Assembly (NCBI GenBank): GCA_964599885.1
Contig: CAZRHH010000005.1
Location: 23,431-87,430 of the forward strand
Origin: an uncultured Dehalococcoidia bacterium
GTDB taxonomy: Bacteria; Chloroflexota; Dehalococcoidia; DSTF01; JACRBR01
DNA length: 64,000 nucleotides
Direction: 5' to 3'
The notes beneath the pieces were generated by a model, which saw only the letters and a list, made by a program, of their open reading frames with translations, had not been told where the DNA came from and searched no databases. Shown here one piece after another: positions 4,171-11,601 of this stretch. The first letter of the stretch is position 1, and the number at the start of each line of letters is the position of its first letter. The position numbers were made by a program, and so were the translations under genes.

Positions 4171-5466
4171 TCAGAATCTGGAGCGCGCCACCCGCCACAT
4201 CACCGCCCCCGCACCAACGACCGCCGCGACCAGCACCGCAACGATCGCGATCGTCACAACCGGCGTCCCATCGTCGTCGCCACCCGGCGCCACACTGTCG
4301 CTGTCATCATCATCGCCGCCCGTTACGCTCGGCTGAGCGCTCACTTCATCCGTCGCTTCCGCGCTCGGCACGGCGCTCGGCGCGCGCGCCTCCAACCCGA
4401 CCGACTCGCGCCAGGCGTTCTCCAGGCCGAACTGGTCAAACCCGTACACCGACTCAAACGCCGGATCGATCCGCGATCCGTCTTTGAAGGTCTTAAGCAA
4501 CTCGGCAAACTTCTCCGCCCCGTACGTCTCCACCAGGAAGTTGATGATCGAGCCCGCCTGGCCGTAGTACAAGAATGCTGTCGAGGCCACGTCGCCGCTG
4601 GCCGACGAGTTCATCTCCGCAAACGTCAGCACACGGTCGCTGTTGATAGCCGACTCCAGCGCGATGTCGAATTTGGAGATGGGCTCCCGCTCCGCGTACA
4701 CGGAGATACCTTCCTTCATCCAGTCCGGCACCCCAAACGGACCTTTCGTCGCGAACCCGGTGACGATATGGGCGATCTCGTGCCGCGCGTTGTCCAGCGT
4801 CGAACCCTCAGCCGACACCATAGTCGTGTCTGAATAGAACACCTCACCAAGTATCCTCAGCCCTCGCCCGATGCCAGGCGAGATCGCCAGTTGCATGTCA
4901 TCCGCCGAGTCGTACAGAAACACCTTCACAGGGAAATCGACCACCGCTCCCTCAAGTTCGCCGACTTCCGCCAGTGTTTCGACTGCGGCGGCGAGTACCG
5001 CACGCGCTCTCGCCTCGTCCGCGTAGTAGTGCACGGTCACGCCGCCATCGCTGACAGTCGTGAACTCGAAGCGCGTATCCGCGTGTACGTACAGTCGCGA
5101 CGCGGTTTCCGTCCTGTTCCCGTCGGCGTCCTCGATATCCCAGTGGTAGGTGATCTCCGCGCCCGGAATGATGTAGATGCCGCGCCCACTGGTGAGCGTG
5201 TACGTGCACGTAGTCGTCGCCGCGCCCACGCACGACGCGATCGCTGTGGCCCCGGTACCATCCGGCGCAACCTCGTAGCGCAGCCGCACGTCTTCCGCTT
5301 CCGCCGGCGCGTTAAACGAAACCGAGAACGCCACCCCGGTCGGAAACTCGTTTCGCGCCTCCTCGTTCACGACAGCGATCGCTTCCTGCGCCCCTGCACC
5401 ACCCGCGCCACCCAACGCCGCTATCACAAGCGCGCACGCCGCGACTACGGCGACTGCACAACGCAT
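4171..5466 (-). CDS. Secreted zinc metallopeptidase-like protein (HExxH) with C-terminal acidic linker and TM anchor
   Basis: Signal peptide 'MRCAVAVVAACALVIAALGG', 'HEIAHIV' zinc-binding motif, and a C-terminal 'DDDDSD...GDDDG' stretch followed by a hydrophobic helix and 'RVARSRF'. Confidence 0.6.
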   Translation of the reverse strand: MRCAVAVVAACALVIAALGGAGGAGAQEAIAVVNEEARNEFPTGVAFSVSFNAPAEAEDVRLRYEVAPDGTGATAIASCVGAATTTCTYTLTSGRGIYIIPGAEITYHWDIEDADGNRTETASRLYVHADTRFEFTTVSDGGVTVHYYADEARARAVLAAAVETLAEVGELEGAVVDFPVKVFLYDSADDMQLAISPGIGRGLRILGEVFYSDTTMVSAEGSTLDNARHEIAHIVTGFATKGPFGVPDWMKEGISVYAEREPISKFDIALESAINSDRVLTFAEMNSSASGDVASTAFLYYGQAGSIINFLVETYGAEKFAELLKTFKDGSRIDPAFESVYGFDQFGLENAWRESVGLEARAPSAVPSAEATDEVSAQPSVTGGDDDDSDSVAPGGDDDGTPVVTIAIVAVLVAAVVGAGAVMWRVARSRF

Positions 5467-5546
5467 CACCGGATCCACCCTTGAATCACCCGCTCCATCA
5501 TCCACCCTCCAGCGTCCAGTCGCCGTGCAACGCGCCTGCGCCTCAC

Positions 5547-6651
5547 TTAGCTCTCCTCCCCAACCGTCGTCTTCAAATACGCCTTGATCGCATCATCCAG
5601 ATCGCCATCCAGCACGTTTGCCGCATCGCTCGTCTCGTAACCCGTCCGGTGATCCTTCACCATCTTGTACGGGTGCAGCACGTAACTGCGGATCTGATTG
5701 CTCCAGCCCGCGCTCACGTGCTCGCCTTTGATCTTCGCCTGCTCCTCCGCGTGACGCTTCAACTCCTGTTCGATCAGCCGCGCTTCGAGCACGCGCATCG
5801 CCGACTCCCGGTTGCGCCCCTGCGATCGCTCGTTCTGGCACGTCACGACGATCCCGCTCGGGATGTGCGTGATCCGGATCGCCGTCGAGTTCTTCTGCAC
5901 GTTCTGTCCGCCGTGCCCGCTCGCGCGATACACATCGACACGAATGTCGTCGGCCGTGATCTTCACTTCCGCCGCGTCCGTCGCTTCCGGCAGCGCCTCG
6001 ACGAGCGCGAACGACGTATGACGCCGGTTCTCCGAATCGAACGGCGAAAGCCGCACCAGCCGGTGTACCCCGCGCTCGCTCTTCAGATAGCCGTACGCGT
6101 GCTCGCCCGTCACTTCGACCGTCGCGCTCTTGATGCCTGCCTCTTCGCCGGGCATCAGATCGATCACGTCAGCGCCGAAGCCACGCCGTTCGGCCCACCG
6201 CAGATACATCCGCAGCAGCATCTCCGCCCAGTCCTGCGACTCCGTGCCGCCCGCCCCCGCGTGAATGGCGATGATCGCGCTGCGATCGTCGTACGGTCCC
6301 GAGAACGTCAGCTCGAACTCCAGCTCGTCCAGCTCCGCTTCGATCGCGGCCGCGTCCCGCGCGATGTCCTCGGCCGTCGCGTCGTCGTCCTCTTCCGACG
6401 CCAGCTCCACCAGCTCGGCCAGATCGGCGACGCGCGCCTCTAACCCGCGCCAGACATCGATCCGCTGGCGCACGGCCGAAAGCCGCCGCATCGTCGCCTG
6501 TGCCGGCTGCGGATCGTCCCAGAACTTCGGATCAGCGGACTGCGTTTCGAGCGCCGTCGCTTCTGCTTCTAGTTTGGGGATGTCAAAGACGCACCATGAC
6601 ATGGCTCACGCGTTCGCGCAGCGCACCGAGATTCTCGCGAAGTTCCTGCAT
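5547..6651 (-). CDS. prfB: Peptide chain release factor 2, with programmed +1 ribosomal frameshift
   Basis: Frame-0 ORF 'MQELRENLGALRERVSHVMVRL' ends at CTT TGA C (6588..6582). The +1 frame continues 'DIPKLEAEATALE...' and carries 'SGHGGQNVQK' (GGQ motif) and 'SPFDSENRRHTSFA'. Join is 6651..6586 + 6584..5547. Confidence 0.92.
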
Positions 6652-6837: not shown

Positions 6838-8007
6838 CTAAAACTCTCCGCCGTCTCCAAGCGGTACCGAGGCGACCTGCTTTGCCGCCAGATCTTGGTT
6901 CAGGTATGCGAAGAACCCGTTCGAGTTCTCCGCGACATCCGGCGCCACCCAGACGTGCATCATCCAGCGCGCCTCTTTGACGTAGAGCCCGCCGATCGCC
7001 TTGCACCCCGCTTCGTCGGCCGCCTCGCTGGCCGACGTCTGGTTGAGACAGACACCCGCGTGCCCGTGCCACACGTCCAGATCGCCGGCGAACCCTTCGG
7101 GCGCCGCCGTGGTCGTCGCGCCGCCGCTGCCGGGCAATTGCAAGAACCACACACCCACCAGGCGCGCCTCTCCATCATCAATCTTGCTGAAGAGCAGGCC
7201 TTCCGGTCGCGCCGGATCGAACACGTTATCTGCCAGATAATCGATATTGATCCAGTGCTCGCCCATCGCCGTCACGTCGGCCGACACGCGAAAGTATCCC
7301 GCCGCCTGCGCCGCCTCGGCGGTGGCGAGCCGTTTGCCGACGTCGCTCGCCTGCGTCATTTGCGAGCGCAGGTATCCCAGCTCCTCGCCTGTCACCAGCC
7401 CATCCGGGATCATCGCCATCACCCGCTGGTCGTCCAGGCTGACGAGCTGCGTCATCGTCGCGTGCGTGCCGGCATCGTGTACGCCGTCGGCGTGCGCTGC
7501 GGCCCCGGCATGCGCAGCGCTGTCGTCGTGCGCTGCCGCACCGTTGTCCGCGGCCACAAGCCCATCACCGGCAGGCGCGCTCCGCGATTCCAGCACTTCG
7601 CTCTCGCGCCCAAGCGTCATGTTCGCGTTGAATGCGTACGTACTGGCGCCCGCGCTCATCGCGAACACGCCCGTCCAGGCAGCGATCAACGGCACGCACC
7701 GCCGCACTGCGCTTTCTACGGAGCCCGCAGACGTGAGCGCCGTGACCGACAGCGCACCGAGCAAGCCCGCGCAGATCACCATCGCCGCAACCAGCGCGAC
7801 AATCGAACCCGGCTCGGACGTGCTGAACAACGCCTGCACGCCGTCCCCGCGTTCGTACCGCACGAGCTGAATGCCAAGCCCGGCGAACAGCGCGAAGACG
7901 CCCGCCACAGCAACCGCCAGCCATGTCGATGGATGCTGAAGCGCCGTCGTAAGCCCCGATGCTTCGCTCGCCACTTCATGGCCCGATGGCGCGTTCCTAG
8001 TCGTCAT
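6838..8007 (-). CDS. Hypothetical membrane protein with His-rich segment and large extracytoplasmic domain
   Basis: Three predicted N-terminal TM helices, His-rich tract 'AAAHDDSAAHAGAAAHADGVHDAGTHA', and conserved-looking C-terminus 'WHGHAGVC...MMHVWV'. Confidence 0.5.
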   Translation of the reverse strand: MTTRNAPSGHEVASEASGLTTALQHPSTWLAVAVAGVFALFAGLGIQLVRYERGDGVQALFSTSEPGSIVALVAAMVICAGLLGALSVTALTSAGSVESAVRRCVPLIAAWTGVFAMSAGASTYAFNANMTLGRESEVLESRSAPAGDGLVAADNGAAAHDDSAAHAGAAAHADGVHDAGTHATMTQLVSLDDQRVMAMIPDGLVTGEELGYLRSQMTQASDVGKRLATAEAAQAAGYFRVSADVTAMGEHWINIDYLADNVFDPARPEGLLFSKIDDGEARLVGVWFLQLPGSGGATTTAAPEGFAGDLDVWHGHAGVCLNQTSASEAADEAGCKAIGGLYVKEARWMMHVWVAPDVAENSNGFFAYLNQDLAAKQVASVPLGDGGEF

Positions 8008-8115: not shown

Positions 8116-8886
8116 CTACGCCCCCTTCTTCGCCACCATCAAGTACCGCGTCTCCGTCAGCACGATGCCCTGCTCGCCACGGTGGGCGTCCTCAAACGCC
8201 AGCAACGCATCGATATCTGCCGCCGGATCGAAGTCCGGGATCTCCCACGGCGCCGTAAGCAGGCAGTACACGACGTCGCCCAGCGCCGCGTACGCTACGC
8301 GCCGTTCGTGGATCTGCGATTCAACCGTCAGCCCGGCCGACTCGAACTCCTGCCGGTACGTGGCGTAGTGGTCCGGGAACGCCGTCTTGCGCGGAAAGAA
8401 CGGCCGCAGTTCATCCCAGCTCGATCCGCCAACCTGTTGCGTGATCGCGACGCCACCGGGCCGAAGGGCGCGCGCAACATCACTCGGCGTGAACGCCTCA
8501 TGCCGGCTCAGGAACACATCGATCGAGTCGTCGGCGAACGGCAACCGCTCGCTGTCCGCCCCGAACACACGCACGCCCAGCGGCGTCAGCCGTTCGTGTG
8601 CGACAGCGAGATTCACATCCCACATTTCCGTCGCGACGAGGTGGGCGCCGGCTGCCGCGCCATCAACAATCCGCGCCAGCACCTCGCCACCGCCCGTCCC
8701 GACGTCGAGTACCCACGCACCATCTCGTACATGTTCGCGCGCGAGCGCTTCGTAGTCCCACGGCGGCCCCGCATCGAGCGGCGTCTGCTGCACGTCGTCG
8801 AAGCTCCAGCCGGAGAACCGGCGCGCGCGTTCGATATACGGCCGCAGCGCAGCGATCGTCTCCTGTCGCCGTGCGTCGCGGGTCAC
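8116..8886 (-). CDS. Class I SAM-dependent methyltransferase
   Basis: 'VLDVGTGGGEVL' motif I. GTG start overlaps the stop of the upstream nfi-like gene (GTGA). Confidence 0.7.
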   Translation of the reverse strand: MTRDARRQETIAALRPYIERARRFSGWSFDDVQQTPLDAGPPWDYEALAREHVRDGAWVLDVGTGGGEVLARIVDGAAAGAHLVATEMWDVNLAVAHERLTPLGVRVFGADSERLPFADDSIDVFLSRHEAFTPSDVARALRPGGVAITQQVGGSSWDELRPFFPRKTAFPDHYATYRQEFESAGLTVESQIHERRVAYAALGDVVYCLLTAPWEIPDFDPAADIDALLAFEDAHRGEQGIVLTETRYLMVAKKGA

Positions 8887-10004
8887 GATGCCGCTCCTGC
8901 CGGTGGTTCGCCCATCTCACGACATTCGTAAACCAGCTCAAGCGCCGCGTCCTCGCCCGCCCACGCCGTGACCGGCTTCTCAAGAGCAACGTAGTACTGC
9001 ATGATCGCCCCACGAAGCGCTGAGGGCACGTCAAGCGGCGCACCGGCCGGCACGGCAAGCAGCTTGTGATCGCCATCACGCCGGAGCAGCACGTCGATCA
9101 CCCGTACCGCCAGCCGCTCACCGCGCGCTCGTTCGTCGCCGTCGACCACCATCACGTCGAGCAGTTCGCCATCGGCCGGATTGATAATGTCGATGGAGCA
9201 TCCGTAGTGCGTGAGCATCGGCGGCAGATCGTGCTGGTAAACGACCGCATCGTCCGCCGCCACCCACTCCCACCGCCCCCGCTCCCCGGCGCGCTGCTCG
9301 ATGACGATATCCAGCGTCGCTTGCAGCATCCGGCGCTTTGCGTCGCCCGCCGCGCGATCAGCGAGCCGCGGCGGCTCCGGCACGCGATAGCCACGCGCGC
9401 ACGCCAGCGCCCACCGCTCCGCCGACGAGAGACTGATCCGGTGCCCCACGGAAACGTAGATCGAACGCACTCCTTGCCGCGTCCGCAGCATCGAACCGAT
9501 CACTTCGCCAGCATCCGTCAGGTTCGCGCGCGAACCGCGAAGTCCCGCTACCGTGCCTTGCTCGCCGATGAGGCGCGACTTGGCGACACCGACCGTCGGC
9601 AGATCAAGCAGCAGCCCGACGTGGCACGCAAACCCAAACCGACGCGGATGCGCGTACCCATGCCCATCGACCATCAGCAGGTCCGGCGTTCCACTGAGCC
9701 GCGCGAACGCCTCCAGCAGCACCGGCGTCTCGCGGAACGACAGCAGCCCCGGCACATACGGAAACGTCACGGGCACTTCGACGGTCACGCGTTCGGCGAT
9801 CTCCATCGACGGATACGCCAGCAGCACCACCGCGCCCACCCCTCGCCCGTTCGGCTTGTCGAACGCGACGTCGGCGCCGGCAACCAGCCGCACGTCCGAG
9901 TCCGGCAGCTCCCCAGTGCGAATCACCCGCTGCGCCAGTTCGCGCTGCAAACTGATCGCTTCAGTCGGGCTCAGATCCCACGGATGCAACGCCTCAATCC
10001 GCAT
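8883..10004 (-). CDS. nfi: Endonuclease V (deoxyinosine 3'-endonuclease) fused to a C-terminal family-I inorganic pyrophosphatase-like domain
   Basis: N-terminal 235 aa align with EndoV ('LVAGADVAF', 'PYVPGLLSFRE', 'LMVDGHGYAHPRRFG', 'PTVGVAKSRL', 'GYRVPEPPRLADRA'). The C-terminal 135 aa resemble PPase ('THYGCSIDII', 'DGELLDVMVV', 'DGDHKLLAVP', 'YYVALEKP'). There is no stop between the two parts. Confidence 0.75.
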   Translation of the reverse strand: MRIEALHPWDLSPTEAISLQRELAQRVIRTGELPDSDVRLVAGADVAFDKPNGRGVGAVVLLAYPSMEIAERVTVEVPVTFPYVPGLLSFRETPVLLEAFARLSGTPDLLMVDGHGYAHPRRFGFACHVGLLLDLPTVGVAKSRLIGEQGTVAGLRGSRANLTDAGEVIGSMLRTRQGVRSIYVSVGHRISLSSAERWALACARGYRVPEPPRLADRAAGDAKRRMLQATLDIVIEQRAGERGRWEWVAADDAVVYQHDLPPMLTHYGCSIDIINPADGELLDVMVVDGDERARGERLAVRVIDVLLRRDGDHKLLAVPAGAPLDVPSALRGAIMQYYVALEKPVTAWAGEDAALELVYECREMGEPPAGAAS

Positions 10005-10073
10005 GATGCGAGTGTACGCCACGGGGCCGCGTGTACCGTGGACGGAAAAGGCGGGCCACTGTACGCTCGCCCC

Positions 10074-11065
10074 ATGGATGACCACGATCGCCTGTCTCTG
10101 TCTTCCCTCGCGCAGCGCGAAGCGGCAGCTGCCGTGAGCGCGCTGGCCGCCGCTGAACGCGCCGTCGAAGCGGGCCACCTCAACGCCGCGAAGGTGCTGC
10201 GCGCCGCCGCTCACTCGTCTCGTGTGCGCGCGCTCGCGCTGCAGCGCATCGGCAGCACGAGCGACACGACCCTCATGGATGTCGAGTCGCTCCGCGTAGC
10301 CGCCGGATCGACGCTCGCAGCACTCAGTACGCTTGCCACCTCGGTCCGCGGCCTGCAACCATCGCTCGACGCGCTCCAATCATCGCAGCATCTCCTGGCC
10401 GAGACGCACACTGCCCTCGTTCGCGGACGCGATGTGCGCGAATCCGAGATCGCGCAATTCTTGTGGGGCTGCAGCGAGTGTGGTCTGCTCGTCGAGGCTC
10501 CCCGCCCAGAGATCTGTCCAGCGTGCGGCAGCATCGGCGGTGACTTTGAGATGTTCGCGCCGTTCTTCAGCGCGACGAGCGAACACCTGGCGCGCCGCCG
10601 CCCGCCGGAGATCGTCGAGATGCTCAGCGGTGACGGCGAGCGTGTCGAAGGGCTCTTACGCGACGTGCCCGACGCGGCGCTTCGTGCGCGACCCGCGGAA
10701 GGCGAATGGTCATGAAGGAAATCGCCGGCCACATGATCGACATCGCCGAACTGTTCGGCCGCCGCGCCCGCGCGACGCTCGACCCGGCGGCGCCCAGCGT
10801 CGCCGAACGAACGCCGCTGCCCTGGAGACTCATCGAAGGGCAAGCGTATCCCGAGACGCCTCTCGTCAACATCCTGACGCGGTTCCGCGCCGCGGTGGAC
10901 GACGCTCTTGCGATCATCACCAGCCTCGAAGACGGGGACTGGCGCCGGAAGGGGGAACTATCCGTCGGCCGCATCTCGCTGATCGATATGGCGTCCTGGC
11001 TGGCGAACGACAACCTCGCGCACACCAAACAGATCGTGCTTCTCCGCGACGCGCCGGACGAATAG
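10074..11065 (+). pseudogene. Helical/Zn-ribbon + DinB-like (DinB_2) protein interrupted by a 1-nt frameshift at 10706-10715 (possible split gene)
   Basis: ORF 10074..10715 ends '...CSECGLL..CPACG...PAEGEWS*'. ORF 10712..11065 starts 'MKEIAGHMIDIAE...'. Together they recreate the DinB_2 N-terminal motif (P-x-G-x-W-S / hE-h-x-x-H-h-x-D-x-E) across a frame change, and the junction is an ATGA overlap. Confidence 0.5.
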
Positions 11066-11142: not shown

Positions 11143-11601
11143 GTGAAATACATCCCCGCAGTCGTCCTAGCATTCGTCGCGCCGGCCGTGCTCGTGGGCT
11201 GTGGCGTCGCCTTCTCGCCCGACGACGAAGGCAACGAGTTCTTTCAGTCGCTGGATGTCACCGGCGACAAGCGCGTCGGACAACTGTTGACGGCGGCCGT
11301 GACCTACGAGCAGTTCTACCCGCTATTCATCCACATGACCTGCGAACTCCGCCAGGAACAACAACTCGTAAAGTCGATCTCCGAGGCAACCGTCCCGCCG
11401 CTCAGGGGTGGTACCCCCGGCACGACGCCGTTCCCCGGCAACTTTGCGTTCGACTTCACGGTCGAGGAACCGGGCAACTACCGCGTCGAGTGTCTCACGC
11501 CGCGCGATGAGGACAACTACATCATCGACGAGTTCACGATCGCATCAGCTCCGGCCGAAACTCCGACGCCCGCGCTCGGCGCCGACGAAAACGCGCAGTA
11601 A
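11143..11601 (+). CDS. Hypothetical lipoprotein
   Basis: Signal peptide with lipobox 'LVGC'; 152 aa; no recognisable family. Confidence 0.5.
   Translation: MKYIPAVVLAFVAPAVLVGCGVAFSPDDEGNEFFQSLDVTGDKRVGQLLTAAVTYEQFYPLFIHMTCELRQEQQLVKSISEATVPPLRGGTPGTTPFPGNFAFDFTVEEPGNYRVECLTPRDEDNYIIDEFTIASAPAETPTPALGADENAQ

Follow-up and report, generated by a model that had tools for sequence, protein, structure and literature searches.

Why should an endonuclease that initiates DNA repair carry, in the same polypeptide, the fold of an inorganic pyrophosphatase? The question is raised by a gene in a stretch of 64,000 nucleotides (hereafter the window) from contig CAZRHH010000005.1 of an uncultured Dehalococcoidia bacterium, where a single open reading frame (ORF) at positions 8883-10004 of the minus strand joins endonuclease V (EndoV) to a C-terminal domain (C-domain) related to the family I inorganic pyrophosphatases (PPases). 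The fusion is real, conserved, clade-restricted and strongly constrained. Its best overall explanation, to which we assign a probability of roughly 0.55, is a bifunctional protein in which EndoV and a working Mg2+-dependent hydrolase of the PPase type would be tethered for the removal of inorganic pyrophosphate (PPi) at the repair site.

The ORF runs on the minus strand from an ATG at 10004 to a TGA at 8885-8883 and encodes 373 amino acids plus the stop, one residue fewer than in the preliminary description of this DNA, which had been made from the sequence alone. That description had read an in-frame fusion, and both domains are indeed matched within one uninterrupted frame with no internal stops and no frame changes. 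A longer ORF opening at a TTG at 10379 was rejected: homologues start at the position of the ATG at 10004, a conserved -10-like hexamer lies just upstream of it, and a divergent gene on the opposite strand starts at 10074. Searches of protein databases returned at least 120 clusters of homologues (347-395 amino acids, 59-74% identity) that cover both domains. The junction between the EndoV and PPase-like parts is gap-free and conserved in these clusters, many of which already carry precomputed PF04493 and PF00719 assignments. A scan with one genome per species located the fusion at 22 loci, all in Chloroflexota metagenome-assembled genomes (MAGs) labelled Dehalococcoidia (the commonest), Chloroflexota or 'Chloroflexia'. 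Contiguous in-frame matches to EndoV and the PPase-like domain occur at 22/22 loci and a single stop-to-stop ORF spans both at 20; at the two exceptions, L012 and L025, the EndoV part is truncated or frameshifted, and both come from Nanopore MAGs with obvious indels. Frameshifts do occur in a few Nanopore-MAG relatives (L012, L015, L025 and P0122), but an artificial joining of two separate genes through a missed stop, a frameshift or chimeric assembly has otherwise nothing in its favor and is next to impossible, given the same uninterrupted ORF in independent assemblies from many studies and several sequencing technologies, and the conserved junction.

Several of the relatives call for caution in surveys of domain architecture. 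Frameshifts and read-throughs of the Nanopore-MAG type (L015 6453-7209, L025, L012 5339-6000 and P0122) mimic triple fusions or stand-alone PPase-like genes. A triple fusion of EndoV, PPase-like domain and the methyltransferase encoded downstream was considered at L015 and rejected as an indel artefact, the methyltransferase match being split over two frames in a Nanopore MAG; one other sequence, P0122, has the same appearance. In addition, the MAG MFD05942.bin.2.347 has the fusion locus on two contigs, CAVUOT010000006.1 (L015) and CAVUOT010000015.1 (L025), for which common content is established only over a three-gene core of lipoprotein-like gene, fusion and methyltransferase. Either heterogeneous strains or a duplication within the bin may be the cause.

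The N-terminal half of the protein, as delimited by Pfam, NCBIfam and structure-based alignment (residues 1 to about 221; 9342-10004, minus strand), is an ordinary, catalytically complete and apparently active EndoV. Pfam PF04493 (Endonuclease_5) matches residues 22-217 over profile positions 2-198 of 198 (E = 2.2e-69; 233.5 bits against a cut-off of 23.4), and the whole protein passes the NCBIfam equivalog for deoxyribonuclease V, NF008629, with 253.5 bits against a cut-off of 230. This half aligns end to end with the EndoV structures of Escherichia coli (4xpu, E = 1e-54) and Thermotoga maritima (2w35, E = 7e-51), and its C-terminal motif, GYRVPEPPRLAD, pairs with GYRLPEPTRWAD of the E. coli protein at the very end of the solved enzymes. 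The catalytic and wedge residues are all present (D45, P82-Y83-V84-P85, E92, D113, K142 and D216) and are kept in 119-120 of the 120 homologues: D45, E92, D113, K142 and D216 are each found in 120/120, and Y83 in 119/120. The wedge lies opposite 'PYIP' in both E. coli and T. maritima EndoV, and a motif of the PYIP type inserts at the lesion. D45, E92, D113 and D216 align with the metal-binding catalytic residues D43, E89, D110 and H214 of T. maritima EndoV, and K142 with its K139; at the H214 position the E. coli enzyme has Asp as well.

Beyond the end of EndoV the chain goes on for about 150 residues; the C-terminal extension given in the preliminary description is thus real, although its length had been put at about 135 residues. 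Most of it is a PPase-like domain (residues 229-364; 8913-9320, minus strand) belonging to what is called here the short class, an informal group defined in this analysis. The domain was recognized by a sub-threshold match to PF00719, profile searches, hhalign, AlphaFold2 (AF2) and Foldseek. For the window protein alone the signal is faint. PF00719 is matched over profile positions 2-150 of 153 with E = 1.2e-3, scoring 19.1 bits for the full protein and 22.6 bits for the domain alone, and phmmer with this single sequence against the Protein Data Bank (PDB) gives weak PPase matches at E of about 0.1. The family is far more telling. A profile of 28 C-domains from family members retrieves solved family I PPases from the PDB with E = 4.5e-10 over profile positions 10-142 of 147; 27 of these 28 members individually match PF00719 at E < 0.01, the best at 7.4e-9 and some above the cut-off; and hhalign aligns the family with canonical PPases at a probability of 99.1% (E = 1e-18, 137 aligned columns). 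The AF2 model of the isolated domain is confident, with a predicted local distance difference test score (pLDDT) of 93.7 and a predicted template modelling score (pTM) of 0.87, and every one of the top 50 PDB structures matched by Foldseek is a family I PPase (TM 0.75-0.81, 20-28% identity, E of about 1e-9). The fold is that of the PPases, a beta-barrel with a pair of C-terminal helices. Profiles and predicted structure, taken at the level of the family, are decisive evidence of homology between the C-domain and the family I PPases.

The interpretation made from the letters alone survives this scrutiny in every part open to checking. hhalign sets the proposed landmarks against their E. coli PPase counterparts: IVIEQ against VVIEI (E20), HYG against NYG (Y55), DGELLDV against DGDPVDV (D65/D67/D70), RDGDHKLLAVP against DEAGEDAKLVAVP (D97/D102/K104) and YYVALEKP against HYKDLEKG (Y141). 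The E. coli sequence quoted for the third of these, DGDPLDVLV, was slightly off and should read DGDPVDVLV. The proposed Pfam assignment proved strong for Endonuclease_5, while for Pyrophosphatase it stays below the cut-off with the single sequence and appears in 27 of the 28 family members. A low-complexity extension is excluded by the confidently modelled PPase fold, and a sequencing error by the recurrence of the architecture across the clusters and loci surveyed. A relationship to Pfam InPase (PF18823) was also considered and dropped, the matches being insignificant. Residues 365-373 (8886-8912, minus strand) form a low-confidence, non-conserved tail, with pLDDT below 50 over residues 368-373 and a length and sequence that vary in the alignment.

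Does the domain retain the means to hydrolyze a phosphoanhydride? The 14 polar residues that we take to make up the classical PPase active site were mapped by MAFFT and hhalign from the E. coli sequence, which was checked to be identical to PDB 1faj, and residues were counted over the 120 homologues. Nine positions are identical in the window protein: E20 (E236, 120/120), E31 (E246, 119/120), Y55 (Y267, 120/120), D65 (D278, 120/120), D70 (D283, 120/120), D97 (D310, 119/120), D102 (D312, 119/120), K104 (K314, 120/120) and Y141 (Y338, Tyr in 84/120 or 70%). Two are conservatively changed, K29 to R244 (Arg in 120/120) and D67 to E280 (Glu in 111, Asp in 7 and Gln in 2 of 120), and three are replaced: R43 by H258 (His in 101/120), Y51 by M263 (Met in 115/120) and K142 by V339 (hydrophobic in the homologues). 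The residue that precedes H258, at position 257, is Arg or Lys in 97/120 and Gln in the window protein. The complete canonical set is therefore not present. The substitutions D67E and K29R pointed out in the preliminary description are borne out, with R43H, Y51M and K142V coming on top, and its term 'non-canonical' suits a domain with a sub-threshold Pfam score and altered active-site residues.

The changes are unevenly distributed over the site. The acidic metal-binding cluster is kept whole (E20, E31, D65, D70, D97 and D102, with D67 as Glu), as are the two ligands of the electrophilic phosphate, Y55 and K104. At the leaving-group phosphate site three of the four ligands are altered (K29R, R43H and K142V), and the fourth, Y141, is unchanged in the window protein. 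The family has also gained basic residues that are invariant or nearly so, namely R238, R294, R308, R331 and K343. Among the 136 positions of the domain, 21 are invariant in at least 119 of the 120 homologues and 9 of the 14 catalytic positions are among them (hypergeometric p = 1e-5), and the domain as a whole evolves only slightly faster than EndoV (mean pairwise identity 59% versus 71%). Conservation of this kind indicates that the active site is under selection. In yeast PPase, Asp117, the equivalent of E. coli D67, is the partner of the nucleophilic water (PMC11210485). A literature search on residue-level PPase mutagenesis found nothing directly relevant.

Where the C-domain came from bears on how these changes are read. 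Short-class domains are marked by K29R, M95R, an RxDGDxK loop with three residues fewer between D97 and D102, and a truncated segment following the Y141/K142 helix. The window protein has all four marks (R244, R308 and R309-D310-G311-D312-H313-K314), lacking the four residues equivalent to E. coli K148-K151 after that helix, and the marks occur in 75-100% of 20 stand-alone short-class proteins and the 28 fusion members. Since stand-alone short-class proteins have K29R, M95R and the short DGDxK loop as well, the site looks remodelled, not decayed. An exhaustive hidden Markov model (HMM) search of 1.84 billion representatives yielded only 188 relatives of the C-domain at E < 1e-3, the EndoV-fused clade being a handful of them. 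This clade is met only as an EndoV fusion and has invariant residues of its own (Q237, R238, D304 and R331). Close stand-alone copies were sought and rejected, since what matches at more than 50% identity is fragmentary sequence from contigs 1-3 kb long, in many cases with remains of EndoV. The nearest relatives form a stand-alone family of 150-180 amino acids (P0309/P0126; 22 clusters, 34-40% identity) that has the motifs E-x-x-AG-x-x-x-R-x-EW, HYGC, PADGELLDV and RxDGDxK in common with the fusion. In both contexts examined (P0309 and P0307, 153-164 amino acids) the PPase-like gene stands in an overlapping operon between genes for a Zn-dependent alcohol dehydrogenase (ADH) and a polysaccharide deacetylase (CE4), at L031 3979-6277 and also at L032-L034.

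Other short-class domains stand alone or are joined to GNAT, NUDIX, His_Phos_1 (histidine phosphatase) or DUF402 domains, and in the GNAT fusions K29 and E31 are replaced by Gly and His. These short-class fusions are seen in other phyla, Latescibacterota among them (P0136, P0157, P0177, P0179 and P0144; L026 5467-6420, L027 and L028). The stand-alone proteins score 28-63 bits with the NCBIfam PPase models, whose cut-offs are 200-247. For short-class proteins the PDB profile search returned no solved structure, the literature search no report and the look-up of their clusters no informative annotation.

The two halves may be rigidly joined. In the full-length AF2 model (pLDDT 93.2, pTM 0.88) a single helix extends the last helix of EndoV as far as the first strand of the C-domain. 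This continuous linker helix, supported by the model and by conservation, spans residues 210-228 (9321-9377, minus strand) and contains a highly conserved 'AKRRML' segment. One unbroken helix and a whole-chain pTM of 0.88 suggest a fixed, rigid arrangement of the two domains.

We infer that the C-domain is a working Mg2+-dependent hydrolase of the pyrophosphatase type, with PPi as its most likely substrate, probably with altered kinetics or specificity. Tethered to EndoV, it would remove PPi where EndoV-initiated repair takes place, and such local removal could keep repair synthesis, ligase adenylylation and dITP (deoxyinosine triphosphate) clearance irreversible. Several observations weigh against this explanation. 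EndoV chemistry neither makes nor consumes PPi, and the functional logic of the fusion is for that reason conjecture; a link to PPi derived from the ITPase RdgB, proposed in the preliminary description, is speculation. The nearest relatives of the C-domain lie in unrelated contexts, the Zn-ADH/deacetylase operon and the GNAT fusions, which argues for a generic and not a repair-specific role. The window protein falls below the PF00719 gathering score of 23.5 (19.1-22.6 bits), and the C-domain has no PPase match among the NCBIfam inorganic diphosphatase models at E < 0.1; because it also lacks the full active-site set, it is not a canonical member of family I. R43, Y51 and K142 are replaced and Y141 is only 70% conserved, while the general-base position, D67, is Glu in the window protein and Gln in 2/120.

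The genes around the fusion add a second conserved association. The GTGA overlap given in the preliminary description lies at 8883-8886 (minus strand), where the TGA stop of the fusion meets the GTG start of a class I S-adenosylmethionine (SAM)-dependent methyltransferase of 256 amino acids (8116-8886, minus strand; Pfam Methyltransf_11 and Methyltransf_25, E of about 2e-9). The methyltransferase lies directly downstream of the fusion in 15 of the 22 genomes, and at 11 of these 15 loci the junction has a 4-nt ATGA or GTGA overlap (the start is ambiguous or unlisted in L008 and L022). The arrangement indicates translational coupling of the two genes that is conserved among the relatives. The best solved relative found with a methyltransferase profile is RlmA, an rRNA m1G methyltransferase (1p91, E = 1.9e-9); the match is too weak, and too generic of class I enzymes, for a substrate to be assigned. 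The methyltransferase belongs to a conserved, uncharacterized family with a mean column identity of 64% over 10 genomes and many invariant Trp, Arg and His residues. A defence-system context was considered and rejected: the PADLOC scan had no match for the fusion and only a weak, generic mad2 similarity for the methyltransferase (E = 3e-7).

Transcription of this operon probably starts very close to the fusion gene. A -10-like hexamer, TACACT, at 10011-10016 (minus strand) ends 6 nt before the ATG, and hexamers of the TAnnnT type (such as TACAAT, TAGAAT and TAGACT) stand 5-7 nt before the start codon at 14 of 15 homologous loci. No Shine-Dalgarno sequence precedes the fusion start in the window or in the hexamer-bearing relatives (14/15). 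A hexamer so close to the start without a Shine-Dalgarno sequence fits a leaderless mRNA, and the EndoV-PPase/methyltransferase operon is probably transcribed as one. A generic promoter scan found nothing upstream of the fusion, and the promoter is called from conservation alone.

Conserved synteny extends over a divergent lipoprotein-like gene (11143-11601), the fusion, the methyltransferase, a release factor gene (5547-6602) and a gene for a Peptidase_MA_2 protein (4171-5505); no DNA-repair or nucleotide-metabolism genes were found in this conserved neighborhood. Between the methyltransferase and the release factor gene, which in related genomes are only about 100-300 bp apart, the window has an ORF of 389 amino acids without a Pfam match (6838-8007, minus strand) that for this reason looks like a lineage-specific insertion. 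On the plus strand, an ORF with a rubredoxin-like zinc ribbon at 10074-10715, ending in '...PAEGEWS*', overlaps an ORF at 10706-11065 whose match to DinB_2 is limited to positions 34-128. The two look like one zinc-ribbon and DinB_2 gene (10074-11065) split by a frameshift near 10706-10715. This gene is missing from the equivalent position in most related genomes.

Against this background, the competing explanations of the C-domain can be weighed. The one that survives best, although we consider it unlikely, is that the domain is the cell's soluble PPase, or one of several, which became joined to EndoV by chance without mechanistic coupling and was kept because both functions are constitutive housekeeping. 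Short-class domains are fused to many unrelated partners, and the conserved neighborhood of release factor, peptidase and lipoprotein genes has none for DNA repair or nucleotide metabolism. No second PPase was found in the 64-kb window or the 12-kb loci, the stretches that this search covered (PPase HMM; H+-PPase motifs absent). An essential high-flux housekeeping enzyme would, however, not be expected to have a non-canonical active site, and the continuous conserved linker helix and high pTM of the modelled chain suggest a rigid unit that has co-evolved.

The pattern of substitutions raises a different and rather doubtful alternative, namely that the substrate has changed. The remodelled leaving-group pocket (K29R, R43H, Y51M and K142V, together with the invariant R238, R294, R308 and R331) would then fit a ligand other than PPi, such as dITP, ITP or XTP (inosine and xanthosine triphosphates), tripolyphosphate, or another phosphoanhydride or phosphoester. 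With dITP or ITP as substrate, one protein would target inosine in the nucleotide pool as well as in nucleic acid. Such a change is consistent with the confinement of the alterations to the leaving-group side while the metal ligands and those of the electrophilic phosphate (P2) are invariant, with the appearance of several family-specific invariant arginines, and with the fusion of other short-class domains to nucleotide hydrolases, NUDIX and DUF402. Nothing points directly to any alternative substrate, however, and the sister stand-alone family has the same motifs in an operon with ADH and polysaccharide deacetylase, which is not a nucleotide context. It also counts against a changed substrate that, to our knowledge, no enzyme of the family I PPase fold has a dedicated nucleotide substrate.

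Alternatively, the domain may have ceased to turn over any substrate and serve as an oligomerization scaffold, or as a metal- or PPi-sensing module that modulates EndoV, a proposal to which we also give little credence. Family I PPases are typically hexamers. That K142, R43 and Y51 have been lost, and that Glu or Gln occupies the general-base position, would be in keeping with a non-catalytic role, and the GNAT-fused relatives, which have also lost K29 and E31, show that the lineage can drift away from catalysis. Rigid packing against EndoV, as predicted (pTM 0.88), would suit such a module too, and EndoV has no need for PPi removal. On the other hand, eight acidic or basic residues of the catalytic site are invariant in 119-120 of the 120 homologues, which is hard to explain for a pure scaffold, though a ligand sensor would likewise keep them. 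A scaffold also sits poorly with the four-residue shortening of the segment after the Y141/K142 helix, near which residues presumably line the trimer interface of E. coli PPase.

Least probable among the functional proposals is a more far-reaching one, in which the C-domain is a repurposed PPase fold and no PPi scavenger at all. Its remodelled leaving-group pocket would accept a nucleotide (dITP, ITP or XTP, for example) or another phosphoanhydride, and one polypeptide would clear hypoxanthine out of the precursor pool as well as out of nucleic acid, possibly in joint action with the translationally coupled methyltransferase. If this improbable proposal were true, the protein would be the first enzyme of the family I PPase fold with a dedicated substrate other than PPi, and a function would be defined for the whole short class, including its GNAT, NUDIX and DUF402 fusions. 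A tethered PPase-type hydrolase acting on PPi nevertheless stays our preferred explanation. Should the C-domain instead prove to be a sensor or to act on some other substrate, it would give access to the short class, a set of unstudied proteins with the PPase fold that are fused to several unrelated enzymes.

Current databases conceal this architecture. In public annotation the fusion is called 'deoxyribonuclease V' and its fragments 'inorganic pyrophosphatase', so that each label hides half of the protein. The halves are each known; their combination is without a description in the literature search, which found no paper on an EndoV-PPase architecture, in line with the expectation in the preliminary description. 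An entire clade of Chloroflexota from soil and groundwater has the combination fixed, with strong purifying selection on both active sites.

Compared with bacterial EndoV (Nfi; 4xpu, 2w35), the first 221 residues correspond end to end and keep all catalytic and wedge residues, but the known enzymes are single-domain proteins of about 220-225 amino acids, whereas the fusion adds about 150 C-terminal residues that form a second folded domain. With the family I PPases of E. coli (Ppa; 1faj/1ino), Neisseria gonorrhoeae (5tea) and Mycobacterium tuberculosis (Rv3628; 4z70), the C-domain has in common the fold (TM 0.75-0.81), homology at the profile level and 9 of 14 active-site residues, among them the metal-binding Asp and Glu residues, Y55 and K104. 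It differs from them in being only 20-28% identical, in its five substitutions, shorter D97-D102 loop and four-residue deletion, and in not being free-standing. To the short-class proteins it is linked by K29R, M95R, the RxDGDxK loop, the shortened post-helix segment and the 'HYGC' and 'PADGELLDV' motifs. Those proteins are stand-alone, as in the Zn-ADH/deacetylase operon, or fused to other enzymes.

There is precedent for each side of the arrangement. The AGT-EndoV of Ferroplasma acidarmanus is cited as a bifunctional alkyltransferase/endonuclease V (e.g. in PMC10779285 and PMC3489907) and combines EndoV with a second enzymatic domain in one polypeptide. That protein is archaeal, has the AGT domain N-terminal to EndoV and takes as its partner a DNA-repair protein that acts on DNA, whereas the partner described here is C-terminal, has the fold of a small-molecule phosphohydrolase and occurs in Chloroflexota. 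Fusions of PPase to PPi-producing enzymes are likewise on record, in the form of APS (adenosine 5'-phosphosulfate) kinase/ATP sulfurylase/PPase proteins (PMC11210485). As in the fusion described here, a family I PPase domain is covalently joined to another enzyme, but the partner in those proteins releases PPi, which makes their logic clear, while EndoV releases none. If the C-domain is active on PPi, the fusion would be a rare instance in which a PPase is tethered to an enzyme that makes no PPi of its own, and it would be a hint that clearing PPi locally is of importance to the events after EndoV incision, which are poorly understood.

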